This document shows positions 3,254-13,042 of a DNA stretch of 34,479 nt, piece by piece. The notes under the pieces are model-generated. The model made no database searches. It had not been told where the DNA came from and worked only from the letters and a program-made list of their open reading frames with translations. Source of the DNA: a virus (taxonomy: Duplodnaviria; Heunggongvirae; Uroviricota; Caudoviricetes); IMG/VR virus record IMGVR_UViG_2778261675_000005, one strand, 5' to 3'. Within the stretch, counting starts at the first letter, position 1. Each line of letters begins with the position of its first letter. The translations under genes were made by a program, and so were the position numbers.

Positions 3254-3525
3254 GTATTCGTATTGAAATTGGCGAACGTTATGTCGTTACCAGTGACAGC
3301 TTTCAGTTTATTCTCCACGAGAAAAAGAGAGCGGAAAGCGGTAAAAACGCCGGTCAGGAATGGCTGGCGGTGGTTGGTTATTACCCGAAATTAAGCCAGC
3401 TCGTTTCCGGCCTGATGCATCACGATATTCTGACCGGAAGCGCAAAGTCTTTTGCTGATTTAAACGCGCAGGTTGAGCAACTCAGCAAGCGTTGTTCTGA
3501 GGCTTTTGGCTCATATGGCCGTTAA
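3250..3525 (+). CDS. hypothetical early protein (P2 orf83 position)
   Basis: 91-aa ORF, ATGA overlap upstream; 3' end overlaps the probable A start. Confidence 0.55.
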   Translation: MSIRIEIGERYVVTSDSFQFILHEKKRAESGKNAGQEWLAVVGYYPKLSQLVSGLMHHDILTGSAKSFADLNAQVEQLSKRCSEAFGSYGR

Positions 3526-5800
3526 AGCCTCCGGGCGTTTTGTCCCTCCGTCAGCATTTGCCGCAGGCACCGGTAAGGCGTTTACCGGTGCTTATGCATG
3601 GAACGCGCCACGCGAGGCTGTCGGGCGCGAAAGACCTCTTACACGTGACGAGATGCGTCAGGTGCAAGGTGTTTTATCCACGATTAACCGCCTGCCTTAC
3701 TTTTTGCGCTCGCTGTTTACTTCACGCTATGACTACATACGGCGCAATAAAAGCCCGGTGCACGGGTTTTATTTCCTCACATCCACTTTTCAGCGTCGTT
3801 TATGGCCGCGCATTGAGCGTGTGAATCAGCGCCATGAAATGAACACCGACGCGTCGTTGCTGTTTCTGGCAGAGCGTGACCACTATGCGCGCCTGCCTGG
3901 AATGAATGACAAGGAGCTGAAAAAGTTTGCCGCCCGTATTTCATCGCAGCTTTTCATGATGTATGAGGAACTCAGCGATGCCTGGGTGGATGCGCATGGC
4001 GAAAAAGAATCGCTGTTTACGGATGAGGCGCAGGCTCACCTCTATGGTCATGTTGCTGGCGCTGCACGTGCTTTCAATATTTCCCCTCTCTACTGGAAAA
4101 AATACCGTAAAGGGCAGATGACCACGAGGCAGGCATATTCTGCCATTGCCCGTCTGTTTAACGATGAGTGGTGGACTCATCAGCTTAAAGGCCAGCGTAT
4201 GCGCTGGCATGAAGCGTTACTGATAGCTGTCGGGGAGGTCAATAAAGACCGTTCTCCTTATGCCAGTAAACACGCCATTCGTGATGTGCGTGCGCGCCGC
4301 CAGGCAAATCTGGAATTTCTTAAATCGTGTGACCTTGAAAACAGGGAAACCGGCGAGCGCATCGACCTTATCAGTAAGGTGATGGGCAGTATTTCTAATC
4401 CTGAAATTCGCCGGATGGAGCTGATGAACACCATTGCCGGTATTGAGCGTTACGCCGCCGCAGAGGGTGATGTGGGGATGTTTATCACGCTGACCGCGCC
4501 GTCAAAGTATCACCCGACTCGTCAGGTCAGAAAAGGCGAAAGTAAAACTGTTCAGCTTAATCACGGCTGGAACGATGAGGCATTTAATCCAAAGGATGCG
4601 CAGCGTTATCTCTGCCGCATCTGGAGCCTGATGCGCACGGCATTCAAGGATAATGATTTACAGGTCTACGGTTTGCGTGTCGTCGAGCCACACCACGACG
4701 GAACGCCGCACTGGCATATGATGCTTTTTTGTAATCCACGCCAGCGTAACCAGATTATCGAAATCATGCGTCGCTATGCGCTCAAAGAGGATGGTGACGA
4801 AAGAGGAGCCGCGCGAAACCGTTTTCAGGCAAAGCACCTTAACCGGGGCGGTGCTGCGGGATATATCGCGAAATACATTTCAAAAAATATCGACGGCTAT
4901 GCACTGGATGGTCAGCTCGATAACGATACCGGTAAGCCGCTTAAAGATACTGCCGCGGCTGTTACCGCATGGGCGTCAACGTGGCGCATCCCGCAATTTA
5001 AAACGGTTGGACTGCCGACAATGGGGGCTTACCGTGAACTACGCAAATTGCCTCGCGGCGTCAGTATTGCTGATGAGTTTGACGAACGCGTCGAGGCTGC
5101 TCGCGCTGCCGCAGACAGTGGTGATTTTGCGTTGTATATCAGCGCGCAGGGTGGGGCAAATGTCCCGCGCGATTGTCAGACTGTCAGGGTTGCCCGTAGC
5201 CCGTCGAGTGACGTTAACGAGTACGAGGAAGAAGTCGAGAGAGTGGTCGGTATTTACGCGCCGCATCTCGGCGCGCGTCATATTCATATCACCAGAACGA
5301 CGGACTGGCGCATTGTGCCGAAAGTTCCGGTCGTTGAGCCTTTGACTTTAAAAAGCGGCATCGCCGCGCCTCGGAGTCCTGTCAATAACTGTGGAAAGCT
5401 CACCGGTGGTGATACTTCGTTACCGGCTCCCACACCTTCTGAACACGCCGCAGCAGTGCTTAATCTGGTTGATGACGGTGTTATCGAATGGAATGACACG
5501 GAGGTCGTGAGGGCGCTCAGGGGGGCATTAAAACACGACCTGAGAACACCAAATCGTCAGCAAAGAAACGGAAGCCCGTTAAAACCACATGAAATTGCAC
5601 CATCGGCCAGACTGGCCCGGTCGGAAAGAATGCAAATTACCCGTATCCGCGTTGACCTTGCTCAGAACGGTATCAGGCCGCAGCGATGGGAGCTTGAGGC
5701 GCTGGCGCGTGGAGCGACCGTAAATTATGACGGTAAAAAATTCATGTATCCGGTCGCTGATGAGTGGCCGGGATTCTCAAAAGTAATGGAGTGGACATGA
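3515..5800 (+). CDS. A: replication initiation endonuclease A (rolling-circle initiator)
   Basis: Large ORF in the P2 gpA position; I place the start at the ATG at 3515 (MAVKASGRF...) rather than the track's upstream ATG at 3473, which would overlap most of the previous ORF; conserved HxH-like block (PHWHMMLF) and catalytic-tyrosine region (GYIAKYISKN) typical of rolling-circle initiators. Confidence 0.85.
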   Translation: MAVKASGRFVPPSAFAAGTGKAFTGAYAWNAPREAVGRERPLTRDEMRQVQGVLSTINRLPYFLRSLFTSRYDYIRRNKSPVHGFYFLTSTFQRRLWPRIERVNQRHEMNTDASLLFLAERDHYARLPGMNDKELKKFAARISSQLFMMYEELSDAWVDAHGEKESLFTDEAQAHLYGHVAGAARAFNISPLYWKKYRKGQMTTRQAYSAIARLFNDEWWTHQLKGQRMRWHEALLIAVGEVNKDRSPYASKHAIRDVRARRQANLEFLKSCDLENRETGERIDLISKVMGSISNPEIRRMELMNTIAGIERYAAAEGDVGMFITLTAPSKYHPTRQVRKGESKTVQLNHGWNDEAFNPKDAQRYLCRIWSLMRTAFKDNDLQVYGLRVVEPHHDGTPHWHMMLFCNPRQRNQIIEIMRRYALKEDGDERGAARNRFQAKHLNRGGAAGYIAKYISKNIDGYALDGQLDNDTGKPLKDTAAAVTAWASTWRIPQFKTVGLPTMGAYRELRKLPRGVSIADEFDERVEAARAAADSGDFALYISAQGGANVPRDCQTVRVARSPSSDVNEYEEEVERVVGIYAPHLGARHIHITRTTDWRIVPKVPVVEPLTLKSGIAAPRSPVNNCGKLTGGDTSLPAPTPSEHAAAVLNLVDDGVIEWNDTEVVRALRGALKHDLRTPNRQQRNGSPLKPHEIAPSARLARSERMQITRIRVDLAQNGIRPQRWELEALARGATVNYDGKKFMYPVADEWPGFSKVMEWT

Positions 5801-6252
5801 TGGCAAAAATTCACGAGGTAAAGCTGCACGCAAAATATTTTGACCTTGTGCTAGAAGGAAAGAAACGCGCAGAGTTTCGGAAAAATGACCGTAATTATGA
5901 GCGCGGGGACACGTTGATTTTGCATGAATGGGGGCAGGGGGTGTATACGGGGCGAAAGGTTGAAGCCCGGATAACAGATGTTACTGACCTGTCAGACTGG
6001 CTGGAAGATTATGTCTTGCTAAGTATTGAGCTGCTTAATACAGGCGCATATGAGATTGTGAACTGGAAAGAACTTAGTGAGCGTGGTCTGGTATTCAGAA
6101 TTAATCATGAAATTATGCATCAGCTCGGCCTTGCTGTCATGTATGAACCAGAGACGGGGATGTCTGGCGGGGCAATGGTTGCCACGGATGGAGCATGGAA
6201 CTATTCGGACGAACAGATTGAGTGTGCAAAGCAAAACGGGTGGCTTGGATAA
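5797..6252 (+). CDS. DUF3850/ASCH-like domain protein
   Basis: ATG at 5797 overlaps A stop (ATGA); N-terminal ~60 aa (KIHEVKLHAKYFDLVLEGKKRAEFRKNDRNYERGDTLILHEW) matches the DUF3850 fold pattern as I recall it. Confidence 0.6.
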   Translation: MMAKIHEVKLHAKYFDLVLEGKKRAEFRKNDRNYERGDTLILHEWGQGVYTGRKVEARITDVTDLSDWLEDYVLLSIELLNTGAYEIVNWKELSERGLVFRINHEIMHQLGLAVMYEPETGMSGGAMVATDGAWNYSDEQIECAKQNGWLG

Positions 6253-6458
6253 TGCACAGAATACCAGGCGAGATACCGCAACATAACACTAAAAATATCA
6301 AGCTGATGGCTATTGTTCACCGTCTACAGCAGATTATGGTCAACGAAAATCTGACGCCTGACGAGCTGGTCGGGTGTGCCGAAATAGTCCGGGATAATTA
6401 CGGGCGGCTTAATTATATCCGTCAGTCCAGAGTTGCTCCACCGTCACGCAGACTATAG
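6252..6458 (+). CDS. small hypothetical protein
   Basis: 68-aa ORF starting at an ATG overlapping the upstream stop (TAATG); no recognisable domain. Confidence 0.35.
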   Translation: MHRIPGEIPQHNTKNIKLMAIVHRLQQIMVNENLTPDELVGCAEIVRDNYGRLNYIRQSRVAPPSRRL

Positions 6459-6658
6459 AAAACGCCGTCAGTCTTGAAACTTGTTTTCAGGGCTGGCGGG
6501 GTTGAACAACGAGCATCGCGAGGCGTTAGTGGTTTTCAGTATGTGTGTTATATGTGATAGGTTGCTTCCTAACGTATTTCATGTTTCTATGGAAAAAGAC
6601 TAAAAAACATGGTAAAGAAGCAAAAAACGCATAGAATGTTGTTAAATTTATTTAGATT

Positions 6659-7786
6659 ATGGTGTATGAAATGCCACTGACTGTCTTAGAACCATTCAAA
6701 ACACAGATGATTTCCCCAGATGAATTAATCTTGGATGCTAAAAACCCAAGACTTTATAACGGGAAAAGTTTTAATGACAATGCCGACCCGCACGAACTGG
6801 TTAAGGCTCTCTCTGATACAGCTGATTTGGAGGAGTTGATTAAATCCATATCAGAGAATGGATATATGTCAATTGAACCTTTAATTGTCATGAAAAAAGG
6901 TGCCAAATATGTTGTTTTAGAGGGAAATCGTCGTTTAGCAGCGATCAAATTACTTACTGAGCCGGGTTTGGCACAAAAGTGTCGTGTTGTTGTTCCTAAA
7001 AACTTGGACGCTCGTGTTATAGATAGTTTGAAAGAAGTGGCTGTATATCTAGTAAATGATGAGTCAGAGGCTCGTTCATTTATTGGATTTAAGCATGTAA
7101 ATGGTCCACATAAGTGGGATTCTTTTGCTAAAGCGCAATTTGCATATAAATGGTTTGTAAGTGAAAGGGCAAATGGGCTTACAATAGACGATATAACAAA
7201 AAAACTCGGTGATAGTAATAATACTGTGCGTTCTATTGTTAGTGCTATGTTTGTACTTGAACAAGCAAAAAATCAGGAGGTATATGATATTCACGCTGAT
7301 CGCATGTCTCCAAAATTTTCATTTTCACACTTATATACTGCATTAAATAGGTCTGAATATAAAGACTTCTTGGGGCTCGAGAGAGATTGGAATGTTACTC
7401 TTAAAGATAACCCTGTCCCATCGCAGAATATTGATAAACTTAAAGATGTTCTTACTGGTCTTTATGGTTATAAAAAAGATAAAAGAGCTTCTTTAATTTC
7501 TTCACAGAATCCGGATTTAAAATATTTTGGCGAGGTTTTGGCTAATGAGGCCTCATACGAAGCCTTTAAGTCTGGGGTTGAAAGTCTGTCTGAATTATAT
7601 AAACAGGCCGGAGATCCACTTCAACACATCAAGGATGCTTTTCTGGAGATAAACAAGCAGCTTGATACTATATCTTCTGTTCTTGATAGAACTGATTCGT
7701 TAGATGACACAACGAAGAACTACATCGAACAATTTAAGAAAAAAGTATTGAAGGTTCAATTTCAATTGCAGAGTATTGAGGAATAA
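6659..7786 (+). CDS. ParB/Srx N-terminal-domain protein (candidate defense component)
   Basis: 375 aa, AT-rich; N-terminal 100 aa follow the ParB N-domain pattern (ILDAKNPRL ... LEELIKSISENGYMSIEPLIV ... YVVLEGNRRLAAIKLL, i.e. the GxxRxxA arginine box); C-terminal ~270 aa unassigned with a coiled-coil-like tail; alternative start at 6671. Confidence 0.7.
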   Translation: MVYEMPLTVLEPFKTQMISPDELILDAKNPRLYNGKSFNDNADPHELVKALSDTADLEELIKSISENGYMSIEPLIVMKKGAKYVVLEGNRRLAAIKLLTEPGLAQKCRVVVPKNLDARVIDSLKEVAVYLVNDESEARSFIGFKHVNGPHKWDSFAKAQFAYKWFVSERANGLTIDDITKKLGDSNNTVRSIVSAMFVLEQAKNQEVYDIHADRMSPKFSFSHLYTALNRSEYKDFLGLERDWNVTLKDNPVPSQNIDKLKDVLTGLYGYKKDKRASLISSQNPDLKYFGEVLANEASYEAFKSGVESLSELYKQAGDPLQHIKDAFLEINKQLDTISSVLDRTDSLDDTTKNYIEQFKKKVLKVQFQLQSIEE

Positions 7787-7789
7787 TAA

Positions 7790-8809
7790 ATGCAGTTGTT
7801 ACCTTATCCGGAGAGTCATCATATTCAAGTTAAATTAGATTGGCTTGAATTATCATGTTTATCGAATATTTACTTTACTGTGCGTATTTCTGAGTTAAGA
7901 AATATTCTGGAGAATTTAGATTCGTTTACATCTTCTGATATAGGTGAGGAAGATGCTGAAGTAGAGAATGAAATACAACGATTACTGGAACAATATCAGC
8001 AAAGAAAAGATATTTTGGGTGAAAGTTATCCATTTGTTTTTAATGAAGAAACACTTTGTCTTGAGTTAATGGAAGGTACATTGGAACAACTGACAGTTGA
8101 CCAACATATCTATTTATACTGCTTGTATTTTTCTCATATGTCAGCATCACGATTATTTAGTGGTTTGGAAAGTCCTACAAACCAGCAACGGGATTTATTA
8201 CAGATTGCTGCAACTATTGCTTTGGCTGGTTATGTTCAAGGCCATAGTATTTCATTCGGTTGGCCAAGACCAGATAGCTCAAGATTTTATGATGCGTTAA
8301 CTAGGGCTATTGATTTAATAGGAGAGGGCAGAGTAAAATCTCTGGCTGATGTAAATCGCTATTTACAGTCTAGGCCTCATAAAGATGCTGGTATTGATGT
8401 TATTGCATGGAAGGATAATAATCCTCGCGATATGTTTCCTGGTAATAAGCTTATTTATTTTGCACAAGTTGCTAGCGGAAATGACTGGCGCTCTAAAGCA
8501 GTAAAAGAAGACATTGCTGTTATACAAAATCACTGGTTGTCGCAAAGAATATATAGAATAATTGACGCGATTGTTATTCCATTTGATTTCGAAAGTGATG
8601 ATGAATCTATAAAAAAAGATCATATCTCTTTGATAGCCGAGGAGTTTGGAGCAGTGTTGCATAGGCTACGGTTGCCAACTTGTTTTAAGAGGGGCTTAGA
8701 GCTTTTAGTTTCTAACCCTGAGTTGCTGATAGAAAGGGGAAATGAAATAAATAATATTTCACAATATGTAATATCAACAACCGCAACGTTACAACAAGAA
8801 GCGGCCTAA
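7790..8809 (+). CDS. hypothetical protein, possible Mrr/PD-(D/E)xK-like nuclease fold (candidate defense component)
   Basis: 339 aa, AT-rich, GAGGA RBS, start 4 nt after the upstream stop (operon); segment HKDAGIDVIAWKD...KLIYFAQVASG is reminiscent of the Mrr-type restriction-endonuclease core, but the assignment is tentative. Confidence 0.55.
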   Translation: MQLLPYPESHHIQVKLDWLELSCLSNIYFTVRISELRNILENLDSFTSSDIGEEDAEVENEIQRLLEQYQQRKDILGESYPFVFNEETLCLELMEGTLEQLTVDQHIYLYCLYFSHMSASRLFSGLESPTNQQRDLLQIAATIALAGYVQGHSISFGWPRPDSSRFYDALTRAIDLIGEGRVKSLADVNRYLQSRPHKDAGIDVIAWKDNNPRDMFPGNKLIYFAQVASGNDWRSKAVKEDIAVIQNHWLSQRIYRIIDAIVIPFDFESDDESIKKDHISLIAEEFGAVLHRLRLPTCFKRGLELLVSNPELLIERGNEINNISQYVISTTATLQQEAA

Positions 8810-8818
8810 TATTAGGCC
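8803..8818. terminator. perfect 16-bp palindrome GGCCTAATATTAGGCC, probable bidirectional terminator
   Basis: Palindrome read directly; contains the stop codons of both convergent genes; T-run follows on the + strand. Confidence 0.5.
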
Positions 8819-9819
8819 GTTTTAATTGCTTTTTTTTCAATCGGAATTTTACTTTCAGATTCCAATATGTCTACAGTAAATAGTGACTCTGGCATTCTTA
8901 ATCGAGAATCAGCGATCATGAGCTCTTTTCCAACTTTAGCCTGGTTCATCACATAGCTTATCTCTACCGCTCTTGTGCCATGTTTTGAATATAACTCATG
9001 CACTAATGGATGGTCATCATAAGAAATTAGCCAGCGGTTCGCATAACCGGCTATATATTCCTTAAGCTCTCGATGCTGTATGTCATCGAAACAAAAGTTT
9101 TTAGAATAAATGTTTCTGCCCTCTTTAACATAGGGAGGGTCTAGATAAACAAAGTCATTTTCGTAATTGTCTTTGTTATCAAATCGTTTTAAAAAATCAA
9201 TACAATGTTCATTATAAACAAATATAGATTCACGCATGCTCGCTATTTTTTCGAGCTTTTTAATAAGGGTGCTTACAGTGTATCTACAATCAATTTTATA
9301 TTTTCCAGATTGGTCTAAACCACCAATTGGCCCTGCGCTTAGTACTCCAGATCTATTTGTCCTATTTAAATAAAAAACACTGAATCCGTACTCGAGTTTA
9401 GTGTACTTAGTAGGATCAGTAATACTTGACTGATAAATTCTCTTTTGTTTATGCCATTCATCGATACATGGTATATTCTGATATACCATATCTAACAGAT
9501 TGTCGGTGTTGTTAATTAATTGATCCCAAAAACAAAATAAAGCATAGTTCTTGTCATTTAAGTGGATCTCTTTGACATATCCACCCAATAGCAGTGAAAG
9601 CGATGCACCAGCGCCGCCGCAAAATGGTTCAATAAACCGTGCGCCATTTAACTTATTATGCATGAGGAAAATAGCGAGAAATGAAGCAAGCTTGTCCTTG
9701 CCACCTGGATAGCGGAATGGTGAGCTGGCTCTAGGGATGTCGTGAACCCCAAACAACTTGCGTACTGATTTTTTGCTAAGTTGTTTTATTGCTTCATGTT
9801 CAAGGATTCTCTGATCCAT
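8812..9819 (-). CDS. Dam-like (D12-class) N6-adenine DNA methyltransferase
   Basis: 335 aa; SAM-binding motifs FRYPGGK and EPFCGGAG plus catalytic DPPY; AT-rich; convergent with the upstream operon. Confidence 0.85.
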   Translation of the reverse strand: MDQRILEHEAIKQLSKKSVRKLFGVHDIPRASSPFRYPGGKDKLASFLAIFLMHNKLNGARFIEPFCGGAGASLSLLLGGYVKEIHLNDKNYALFCFWDQLINNTDNLLDMVYQNIPCIDEWHKQKRIYQSSITDPTKYTKLEYGFSVFYLNRTNRSGVLSAGPIGGLDQSGKYKIDCRYTVSTLIKKLEKIASMRESIFVYNEHCIDFLKRFDNKDNYENDFVYLDPPYVKEGRNIYSKNFCFDDIQHRELKEYIAGYANRWLISYDDHPLVHELYSKHGTRAVEISYVMNQAKVGKELMIADSRLRMPESLFTVDILESESKIPIEKKAIKTA

Positions 9820-10017
9820 GTGCCACCGTTACTATTATGAAAAATATTTCTATTATCGCATGCGTCATTGCTTCCTGCAATCAGGGTAGCGCATGTATCT
9901 ATAGCGTGCGTGGATTTGCATTTATGTTCTTTGGTCTCTAACTCTTTTGTATGGTAATCCCCAAGGGGGTTTGATTACTTAATTCAACCGCATTAAAACC
10001 GGCTCATGAAGCGGGCG

Positions 10018-10036
10018 GGCGAGGCGGGGAAAGCAC
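10018..10036. other. putative cos cohesive-end site
   Basis: GC-rich 19-mer GGCGAGGCGGGGAAAGCAC in the intergenic region just beyond Q, matching my recollection of the P2 cohesive end; not verified. Confidence 0.5.
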
Positions 10037-10184
10037 TGCGCGCTGGCGGTGGTGCTGATTTTATTTTTTCAGCGTCTGAGCGCGTCGTGATGGCGTTTAG
10101 TCGGCCTGCCGGGGCGTTGGTGTGTCTGCGGGGTGTTTTGTACAGTGGCGAACGTGTGAGGGCGTGATGACGGGGTGTAAAAAA

Positions 10185-10200
10185 GCCGCCCGCAGGCGGC
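10185..10200 (-). terminator. rho-independent terminator of the P-Q operon
   Basis: GCCGCC-CGCA-GGCGGC hairpin followed on the - strand by a T6 run, 5 bp beyond the Q stop. Confidence 0.6.
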
Positions 10201-10205
10201 GATGT

Positions 10206-11240
10206 TCAGCCGTTGTCAGTGTCCAGTGAGTAGTTTTTAAATCGGATGACCTCCTGACCGAGCCAGCCGTTTATCTCGCGGATCCTGTCCTGTAACGGGA
10301 TAAGCTCATTGCGGACAAAGACCTTTGCTACTTTCTCAATATCACCCAGCGACCCGACGTTCTCCGGCTTGCCGCCCATCAACTGAAAGGGGATGCGGTG
10401 CGCGTCCAGCAGGTCAGCGGCGCTGGCTTTTTTGATATTAAAAAAATCGTCCTTCGTTGCCACTTCACTGAGCGGGATAATTTTAATGCCGTCAGCTTTC
10501 CCCTGCGGGGCATAGAGAAACAGGTTTTTAAAGTTGTTGCGGCCTTTCGACTTCACCATGTTTTCGCGAAGCATTTCGATATCGTTGCGATCCTGCACGG
10601 CATCAGTGACGTACATGATATATCCGGCATGAGCGCCGTTTTCGTAATACTTGCGGCGGAACAGCGTGGCCGACTCATTCAGCCAGGCAGAGTTAAGGGC
10701 GCTGAGATATTCCGGCAGACCGTACAGCTCCTGATTAATATCCGGCTCCAGCAGGTGAAACACGGAGCCGGGCGCGAAAGGTGTCGGCTCGTTGAAGGAC
10801 GGCACCCACCAGTAAACATCCTCCTCCACGCCACGGCGGGTATATTTTGCCGGTGAGGTTTCCAGTCTGATGACCTTACCGGTGGTGCTGTAACGCTTTT
10901 CCAGAAACGCATTGCCGAACACCAGAAAATCCAGCACAAAGCGGCTGAAATCCTGCTGGGAAAGCCACGGATGCGGGATAAATGTCGAGGCCAGAATATT
11001 GCGTTTGACGTAAATCGGTGAGCTGTGATGCACGGCAGCACGCAGACTTTTTGCCAGCCCGGTAAAGCTGACCGGCGGCTCATACCATCTGCCGTTACTG
11101 ATGCATTCGACGTAATCCAGAATGTCACGGCGGTCGAGTACCGGCACCGGCTCGCCAAAGGTGAATGCCTCCATTTTCGGGGCGCTGGCGGTCATTGTTT
11201 TTGCCGCAGGTTGCGGTGTTTTCCCTTTTTTCTTGCTCAT
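10206..11240 (-). CDS. Q: portal protein
   Basis: 344 aa, same length and position as P2 gpQ; start overlaps P stop (ATGA). Confidence 0.9.
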   Translation of the reverse strand: MSKKKGKTPQPAAKTMTASAPKMEAFTFGEPVPVLDRRDILDYVECISNGRWYEPPVSFTGLAKSLRAAVHHSSPIYVKRNILASTFIPHPWLSQQDFSRFVLDFLVFGNAFLEKRYSTTGKVIRLETSPAKYTRRGVEEDVYWWVPSFNEPTPFAPGSVFHLLEPDINQELYGLPEYLSALNSAWLNESATLFRRKYYENGAHAGYIMYVTDAVQDRNDIEMLRENMVKSKGRNNFKNLFLYAPQGKADGIKIIPLSEVATKDDFFNIKKASAADLLDAHRIPFQLMGGKPENVGSLGDIEKVAKVFVRNELIPLQDRIREINGWLGQEVIRFKNYSLDTDNG

Positions 11241-13012
11241 CAGTAAAACTCCAGAATGGTGGATGTCAGCGGGGTGCTGATACCGGCGGTGAGTGGCTCA
11301 TTTAACAGGGCGTGCATGGTCGCCCAGGCGAGGTCGGCGTGGCTGGCTTCCTCGCTGCGGCTGGCCTCATAGGTGGCGCTGCGTCCGCTGCTGGTCATGG
11401 TCTTGCGGATAGCCATAAACGAGCTGGTGATGTCGGTGGCGCTGACGTCATATTCCAGACAGCCACGGCGGATAACGTCTTTGGCCTTGAGCACCATTGC
11501 GGTTTTCATTTCCGGCGTGTAGCGGATATCGCGCGCGGCGGGGTAGAACGAGCGCACGAGCTGGAACACGCCGACACCGAGGCCGGTGGCATCAATACCG
11601 ATGTATTCGACGTTGTATTTTTCGGTGAGTTTGCGGATGGATTCCGCCTGGGTGGCAAAGTCCATGCCTTTCCACTGGTGACGCTCAAGTATTCTGAATT
11701 TGCCACCGGCCACCACCGGCGGTGCCAGCACCACGCATCCGGCACTGTCGCCACGGTGTGACGGGTCGTAACCAATCCATACCGGGCGGGAGCCGAACGG
11801 ATTCGCGGCAAACGGCGCATAGTCTTCCCATTCTTCCAGCGTGTCGACCATGCAGCGTTGCAGCTCCTCGAACGGGAACACCGACGCCTTGTCGTCAACA
11901 AATTCACACATGAACAGGTTTTTAAAATCGTCGGCGCTGTTTTCACGTTTGAGCTGCTCAATGTCGAACAGTGTGCAGCCACCTTTCAGGGCATCTTCAA
12001 TGGTGACAATCTGCCGCCACTGGCCGTCCGCACAGAGAAGCCCTCCGGCAAGGGCGTTATGACTGACGTCGATTTCCACGCGTTCGGCGGCGCTGGCGCG
12101 TCCCCGGTTGAACAGTTCACCTGACCAGAACGGGTAGGCGTCGTGCGCCAGCGTGGACGGGGTGGAGAAATAGGTCGAGCGCAGGTGACTCTGTGAGGCC
12201 ATACCTGATGCCACCTTACGCAGTACCTGAAAATTCGGGATCCAGAAAATCTCATCGACGTACAGGTCGCCGTTATGGCTCTGCGCGGTGTTGGAGTTGG
12301 TGCCGAGAAAAATCAGTTTTGCGCCGTTATTGCCCAGGACAATCGGGTCACCGGTCAGGTCAACGTCCACCAGACGGGCAAAGGCGATGATGTATTCGCG
12401 GAACACATACGCCTGCGTTTTACTGGCCGACAGAAAAATCTGGTTATGACCGGTTTTCAGGGCGCGCAGCAGTGCCTCGCGGGAAAAATAAAACGTCGCG
12501 CCAATCTGGCGGGATTTCAGGATATCGCGGATGCGGTGCTCAAGCCCGGCGCGATACCAGTGCAACTGATAGTCGAAAGACTGCTCAAAGAAAATCTGCT
12601 CCAGCTTTTCGATGGCTTCGTCACTGAAAAAATTCTTTTTCGGTTTGCGACGCCCGCCTTTGTTGCGGTTAGCGACGTTCGGATTAAGGTCTGCCTCGTT
12701 GCCGGTCTGGCTGTAGCGGTTTACCCGTGCCAGTCGTTCAATCTGGCGTCCCAGCAGGTCAATTTCCTTGAAGTCACCGCCGGTTTTCTGCGGTTTGATG
12801 ATGAGCTGGGTCAGCCGCGCTTCCAGGCTCATTTCGACACGGCTGATGGGGGCAACGCTGTCCCAGCCGTCGCGCTGTTTCCAGCTCTGCACCGTCGGGC
12901 GTTTCATCTGCAACATGGCGGCAATCTGCGGCACGGAAAACCCCTGCCAGTACAGCAGCGCCGCCTGACGACGCGGGTCGTGTAAAAGAGTGGTGTCTGT
13001 GGTGATGGTCAT
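11240..13012 (-). CDS. P: terminase large (ATPase) subunit
   Basis: 590 aa from the ATG at 13012, preceded by GAGG at suitable spacing (the track's 600-aa start has no RBS); P2 gpP length and position. Confidence 0.9.
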   Translation of the reverse strand: MTITTDTTLLHDPRRQAALLYWQGFSVPQIAAMLQMKRPTVQSWKQRDGWDSVAPISRVEMSLEARLTQLIIKPQKTGGDFKEIDLLGRQIERLARVNRYSQTGNEADLNPNVANRNKGGRRKPKKNFFSDEAIEKLEQIFFEQSFDYQLHWYRAGLEHRIRDILKSRQIGATFYFSREALLRALKTGHNQIFLSASKTQAYVFREYIIAFARLVDVDLTGDPIVLGNNGAKLIFLGTNSNTAQSHNGDLYVDEIFWIPNFQVLRKVASGMASQSHLRSTYFSTPSTLAHDAYPFWSGELFNRGRASAAERVEIDVSHNALAGGLLCADGQWRQIVTIEDALKGGCTLFDIEQLKRENSADDFKNLFMCEFVDDKASVFPFEELQRCMVDTLEEWEDYAPFAANPFGSRPVWIGYDPSHRGDSAGCVVLAPPVVAGGKFRILERHQWKGMDFATQAESIRKLTEKYNVEYIGIDATGLGVGVFQLVRSFYPAARDIRYTPEMKTAMVLKAKDVIRRGCLEYDVSATDITSSFMAIRKTMTSSGRSATYEASRSEEASHADLAWATMHALLNEPLTAGISTPLTSTILEFY

Positions 13013-13042
13013 GAATACCTCGCCGTGATGAATACACGGCAA

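Follow-up and report, generated by a model that had tools for sequence, protein, structure and literature searches.

Gene B, the subject of this analysis, lies in a 34,479-nt stretch of viral DNA (the window) whose gene content is that of a P2-like prophage. Its product had been proposed in a first-pass annotation to contain a Mrr-like PD-(D/E)xK core, together with an assay that implied methyl-directed cutting. The locus thus raises the question of whether B encodes a nuclease, with which partners it would act, and whether modified or unmodified DNA would be its target.

The cassette and its setting

Gene A, gene B, and a DNA methyltransferase gene form a low-GC island between the orf91-like gene and the portal gene (Table 1). 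The GC content from 6500 to 9900 is 34 to 37% versus 51 to 58% in the prophage core flanks, with a sharp boundary, which points to acquired cargo. It occupies the variable hotspot of the P2-like prophage, between the replication and portal genes; the portal-adjacent variable region is a P2 defence hotspot according to Vassallo et al. The same cassette is present in identical form in 12 of 5426 complete E. coli genomes, and a variant with ~83 to 85% identity was found in 8 more. RefSeq names the products "ParB N-terminal domain-containing protein" (A), "hypothetical protein" (B, WP_001176391.1), and "DNA adenine methylase."

Table 1. Positions in the window of the cassette genes, their neighbours, and the features of gene B discussed in the text
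Feature	Position	Strand	Remarks
gpA-type replication endonuclease gene	3473..5800		
DUF3850/ASCH (+ DUF7415) orf91-like gene	5764..6252		
Small ORF between orf91 and gene A	6252-6458		RefSeq hypothetical protein WP_000554777.1, 68 aa
Gene A	6659..7786	+	375 aa; ParB/Srx fold, HTH-like middle, helical C-terminus
GAGGA Shine-Dalgarno for B	7778..7782	+	Inside gene A near its 3' end; 7 nt from the ATG of B; read from sequence
Gene B	7790..8809	+	339 aa, ATG start
Conserved block 1 of B, residues 131-165 (RDLLQ...SFGWPRPD)	8180..8284	+	Helix 131-149 and strand 152-155, which may be the first helix and strand of the core
Putative active-site block of B, residues 198-236	8381..8497	+	From conservation and predicted secondary structure
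K198-D199	8381-8386	+	
D203	8396-8398	+	Directly before strand 204-209
Q226	8465-8467	+	On strand 220-227
K236	8495-8497	+	Just before helix 238-249
Palindromic hairpin, GGCCTAATATTAGGCC core	8798..8823	both	Terminator-like; spans the convergent stops of B and the methyltransferase gene
D12 methyltransferase gene	8812..9819	-	335 aa; convergent with A-B
Portal gene	10206..11240	-	
Terminase gene	11240..13042	-	

The stop codon of gene A (TAA, 7784-7786) is followed by a second TAA (7787-7789) and then directly by the ATG of B at 7790, leaving a spacing of 3 nt. Together with the GAGGA ribosome-binding site, this bears out the earlier description of B as following closely behind A. At distant loci the A-B junction consists of a 3-nt gap, an ATGA overlap, or overlaps of 10 to 11 nt, and such tight junctions are consistent with translational coupling. 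At its other end, the stop codons of B and the methyltransferase gene, with 2 nt between them, fall within a perfect 16-bp palindrome (GGCCTAATATTAGGCC), which in a terminator scan scored as an intrinsic terminator on both the plus strand (8798-8823) and the minus strand (8819-8802). Directly after the portal gene there is a strong GC-rich hairpin with a T-run (10185-10200, minus strand). As this terminator-type hairpin follows the portal gene, the methyltransferase gene probably has its own promoter within 9820-10185.

Phages Wphi (L009, 96-3266) and vB_EcoM-12474III (L010, 3480-6516) carry an A-like gene, a B-like gene, and a C5 methyltransferase gene, with A adjoining the portal gene. In the window cassette (6659-9819) it is orf91 that lies next to A, i.e., the cassette is inverted relative to the same flanks, implying that the hotspot received independent insertions. 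Yersinia phage L-413C (L007) has a lone, shorter A-like gene (207-1199, 330 aa) at the genome end beside orf91, and neither B nor a methyltransferase gene is found beside it in that record; this A-like gene may be left over from the cassette. In the window, the ParB-like gene A is closely preceded by the orf91-like DUF3850/ASCH gene, and a 2025 survey reported that ParB-CTPase-DUF3850 fusions are enriched in phages. Since the two genes are separate here and orf91 belongs to the core P2 genes of the flank, their adjacency may be a coincidence.

Family, putative active site, and predicted fold of gene B

A word-indexed search returned 245 homologues of B, all of ~335 to 340 aa and all named "hypothetical," while an exhaustive profile search gave 2451 representative clusters (50% identity) at E ≤ 1e-3, of which 307 reached E ≤ 1e-30. 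The best-scoring 150 of the 2451 clusters are standalone proteins, mostly of 320 to 365 aa, the shorter ones matching the profile in part only. The family ranges over Enterobacterales, Vibrio, Aeromonas, Pseudomonas phages, and many metagenomes, and only three plasmid records, all large (1.0 to 2.1 Mb), carry B. In PHROGs, B corresponds to phrog_14650, of unknown function; it has no match in Pfam, NCBIfam, or PADLOC, and 38 diverse family members gave no Pfam match even at E ≤ 10. A tblastn search of B against phage records returned nothing at E ≤ 1e-5, and the remote phage homologues were reached only by synteny and then by hhalign. From these comparisons, B is a real gene under selection. 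The central motif singled out in the first-pass annotation (HKDAGIDVIAWKD ... KLIYFAQVASG) is present at residues 197 to 209 and 220 to 230 and, given the number of homologues and clusters, is not a chance resemblance.

Within and around this motif, D199, D203, Q226, and K236 are invariant in 254 of 254 aligned homologues, as are P81 and Y108 elsewhere in the protein. D203 corresponds to the Asp at the N terminus of the second core strand in PD-(D/E)xK nucleases; the third core strand, where (D/E)xK would be expected, has Q226-V-A228. The canonical Lys site, position 228, is Ala in 251 of the 254 sequences, Gly in the other 3, and never Lys, so the earlier remark that the final lysine is not in its expected place holds across the family. 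The D...QxA...K pattern is also kept in remote P2-like phage homologues at 16 to 21% identity, as in those of HQ103 ("GDAGFD...GQCGAQ..W.SK") and Pseudomonas phage D14A ("GDGGID...AQCACS..WSRK"). Judged by these alignments, the putative site of B, D...Q-x-A...K, unites the Gln variant seen in Mrr with a lysine displaced to the second core helix. The same displacement has been described in Pa4535 (PDB 1y0k), where the lysine has migrated onto the second core helix to give the motif PD-EXX-K; the function of 1y0k is unknown, and, set beside the Q226-x-A228...K236 of B by motif, its value as a precedent is limited to active-site geometry. If the reading is correct, D...QxA...K would be a further natural instance of catalytic-lysine migration, useful for spotting cryptic nucleases.

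An AlphaFold2 model of B built from a 35-sequence alignment (pLDDT 93.4, pTM 0.92) contains the alpha-beta-beta-beta-alpha-beta core of the PD-(D/E)xK superfamily. Its top fold match is a Mrr_cat representative, and FokI, N.BspD6I, HindIII, MspJI, Shedu SduA, LlaBIII, SdaI, PaqCI, NgoMIV, Can2, Hjc, and HamA, all of the restriction-endonuclease fold, are among the further matches. Interleaved with these are the winged-helix proteins ORC2, SarR, SmtB, CapW, and BrxR. No match at E ≤ 0.001 was obtained by Foldseek of the model against the PDB, and the sole match of the B profile to PDB sequences was a spurious coiled-coil. The predicted fold is restriction-endonuclease-like, in line with the earlier proposal of a nuclease core. 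The model suggests a probable layout of a winged helix (~residues 10 to 95), a helical linker, and a PD-(D/E)xK-like nuclease domain.

The two most conserved blocks of B, with the lowest mean entropy, are residues 131 to 165 and 198 to 236. R134, Q138, S155, F156, G157, P159, and R160 are invariant in alignment A1. There are two candidates for the first core helix: helix 131-149, with R134, D135, and Q138, which directly precedes a strand, and helix 166-177, which hhalign pairs with the "RFE" helix of Mrr.

This pattern of conservation bears on whether B cuts at all. B might instead be a catalytically dead recognition or specificity subunit with a nuclease fold, cleavage being performed by A, since some proteins of the ParB/Srx superfamily are reported to nick DNA themselves. 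We regard this as unlikely because D199, D203, Q226, and K236 would not stay at 100% in the 254 homologues, and be kept in the remote ones, if the site were dead, and because conservation in B is highest in two blocks that coincide exactly with the core elements of the nuclease.

The relationship to Mrr was the other part of the original proposal. In hhalign comparisons of the B profile with E. coli Mrr and with a 24-sequence Mrr_cat profile, the motifs aligned in the expected register, with E values of 0.03 to 0.04 and probabilities of 1 to 2%; the Mrr profile was shallow, consisting only of matches at 69 to 96% identity, and did not retrieve 1y88 from PDB sequences (the link of 1y88 to Mrr_cat being taken from the literature). 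Neither B nor the 38 members yielded a significant profile match to Mrr_cat (PF04471). E. coli Mrr has the motif GDGGIDG...VQAK; in B the Asp and Gln of D...QxK are invariant, but the Lys is replaced by Ala, and the invariant Lys lies 8 residues further on. The proposed nuclease core is supported by fold and motif, while the Mrr-type label is not supported, given the hhalign E values and the missing Pfam match.

A ParB-like partner and exchangeable methyltransferases

We compared the gene neighbourhoods of B at 35 loci, comprising the window, six metagenome/genome contigs, four phage records, and 24 IMG/VR contigs. At 33 of the 33 loci with upstream sequence, the gene directly preceding B, and often overlapping it, is a ParB-like A gene; at 33 of the 33 with downstream sequence, the gene directly following B encodes a DNA methyltransferase. 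The methyltransferase of the window is of the D12 class (Dam-like, N6-adenine; Pfam PF02086, E 2e-22). D12/PF02086 enzymes are also encoded at L002, L003, L005, L006, and L034, N6_N4/PF01555 enzymes at L001 and L004, and C5-cytosine enzymes in phages HQ103, Wphi, vB_EcoM-12474III, and D14A. The methyltransferase gene is convergent with A-B in the P2-like phages and co-directional in the six metagenome/genome contigs. At these 35 loci, a predicted nuclease gene is accordingly found in stable linkage with an exchangeable methyltransferase gene, as in restriction-modification systems generally. Such linkage to methyltransferases of three classes is a signature of restriction-modification and indicates restriction of unmodified DNA rather than methyl-directed cutting in the manner of Mrr.

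The gene neighbourhoods also argue against the most direct alternative, in which B would be a methyl-directed type IV nuclease of the Mrr kind and the methyltransferase would have another purpose, such as shielding the prophage from host restriction. The top fold match and the GID...Q motif, together with the probable winged-helix-plus-nuclease layout, do recall Mrr. However, Mrr is solitary, acting on modified DNA with no cognate methyltransferase, whereas B is invariably found beside a methyltransferase gene and the gene for a ParB-like partner; the methyltransferases that adjoin it belong to three unrelated classes and are co-directional with it in chromosomal loci, and a methyl-directed enzyme would attack the DNA of its own host. 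With membership of the Mrr family lacking sequence support as well, we consider this alternative highly improbable, and the methyl-directed cutting implied by the assay of the first-pass annotation is not supported.

The comparative evidence makes it fairly likely, in our judgement, that B is the subunit that cleaves DNA in a restriction-modification cassette of three genes, encoding the ParB-like A, the nuclease B, and the methyltransferase. This would probably be a previously undescribed restriction-modification system whose restriction module consists of two proteins and is ParB-linked, a conclusion that we consider computationally well founded. We found no description of the A-B-methyltransferase triad in the literature under PD-lambda-5, ParB plus restriction, Wphi orf96/98, PDC-M38, or P2 hotspot. 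If confirmed, the reading would give a function to a large unannotated family and add to the defence catalogue a three-gene restriction-modification architecture that PADLOC 2.0 misses.

Gene A is more conserved than B (40 to 50% versus ~30% identity at comparable depth). In GmrSD, SspE, Menshen, and Dpd, domains of the ParB superfamily sense modification or act as activators, and one also partners a phage thymine dioxygenase. In many ParB-fold proteins the arginine of box II is required for nucleotide binding. A has the invariant motifs NPR (residues 29 to 31) and EGNRR (residues 88 to 92), which are the counterparts of ParB boxes I and II. The canonical ParB box III, "ENxQR," was not seen in the alignment of A, making nucleotide hydrolysis by A uncertain.

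Residues 55 to 362 of A align with positions 59 to 354 of PDC-M38A, a PADLOC candidate model of 715 positions (E 8e-21). The length of this model is close to that of A plus B (714 aa), yet B does not match it; we found no mention of PDC-M38 in the literature.

Relationship to PD-lambda-5 and a possible mode of action

The closest characterized relative is PD-lambda-5, a validated two-gene prophage defence system that protects E. coli against many phages (Vassallo et al. 2022). Like the window cassette, it occurs in prophages and combines a ParB-like N-terminal domain (A residues 16 to 164 match the PD-Lambda-5_A profiles, E 7e-23) with essentially the same D12 methyltransferase, that of the window matching PD-Lambda-5_B with an E of 4.6e-94 over positions 4 to 281 of 291. 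In contrast, PD-Lambda-5_A is a single protein of 450 to 500 aa whose C-terminal half is reported as HEPN, a later survey listing PD-lambda-5 among HEPN-containing systems; A matches only positions ~5 to 161 of the 466-position profile. PD-lambda-5 has two genes and lacks B, whereas the window has three, with B represented by no PADLOC model. The window cassette is thus a sister architecture of PD-lambda-5, in which the HEPN half is replaced by the helical tail of A and a separate nuclease-fold B. As the effector half of PD-lambda-5 is reported as HEPN, B sits where the effector would be expected.

Marinobacter phage AS1 encodes a genuine PD-lambda-5 pair (gp27/gp26), AS1_27 matching the PD-Lambda-5_A profiles over almost their full length. 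The C-terminal half of AS1_27, representing that of PD-Lambda-5_A, has no similarity to the C terminus of A or to B. The possibility that PD-Lambda-5_A is a fusion of A and B was rejected, the hhalign probability being 0.1% both for AS1_27 and for a split gene in a Vibrio phage.

Restriction-modification systems can act as addiction modules, and the cassette might accordingly be mainly an addiction or abortive-infection module, with B a toxin-like nuclease that is restrained by methylation or by A and set free on host DNA upon infection or prophage loss. That the cassette is mobile, low-GC cargo fits such a role, and the authors of PD-lambda-5 describe that system as a compacted "RM+Abi." The HEPN half of PD-lambda-5, a plausible source of the Abi label, is nevertheless absent here, and nothing in A or B suggests an infection sensor beyond DNA binding; we consider a primarily addictive or abortive role quite improbable.

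Under the preferred restriction-modification reading, the methyltransferase would mark host and prophage DNA, while A and B, made from one translationally coupled transcript, would together form a restriction enzyme against unmodified incoming DNA. A would serve as a DNA-binding, possibly NTP-binding, sensor or activator that licenses the cutting of unmodified DNA, and B would be the cutter. Catalysis would be supplied by D203, Q226, and K236 of B, with D199 as a further invariant acid, and its variable N-terminal domain would probably add sequence contacts.

LlaJI couples a DNA-binding NTPase-type subunit and a separate nuclease subunit to methyltransferases. The same division into two subunits is found in McrBC and in split GmrS/GmrD, and A-B resembles all three systems in this respect. 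A is not, however, an AAA+ GTPase as in McrBC-type systems, nor does it match DUF262, the family of GmrS, a ParB-superfamily member that detects DNA modification; and GmrD has an HNH/His-Me nuclease, in contrast to the PD-(D/E)xK type predicted for B.

More tentatively, A-B may represent a new kind of restriction enzyme, in which a ParB/Srx nucleotide switch (CTP or ATP) replaces the helicase or AAA+ motors of type I, type III, and McrBC-like enzymes. A would then load onto unmethylated DNA, or slide along it, to license a PD-(D/E)xK subunit with a relocated lysine, the ParB-like module being a portable sensor for different effectors (B here, HEPN in PD-lambda-5). If the preferred restriction-modification reading is right, the ParB-like module of PD-lambda-5 would pair with alternative effectors, and the role of the ParB/Srx fold in immunity could be studied with the cassette in a tractable E. 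coli/P2 setting.

The split gene mentioned above is from Vibrio phage ValB1MD-2 (L013, 2950-4499), in which PD-Lambda-5_A is divided into adjacent ORFs of 252 and 265 aa that match positions 4 to 238 and 250 to 502 of PDLC03995, representing either a natural split or a frameshift.
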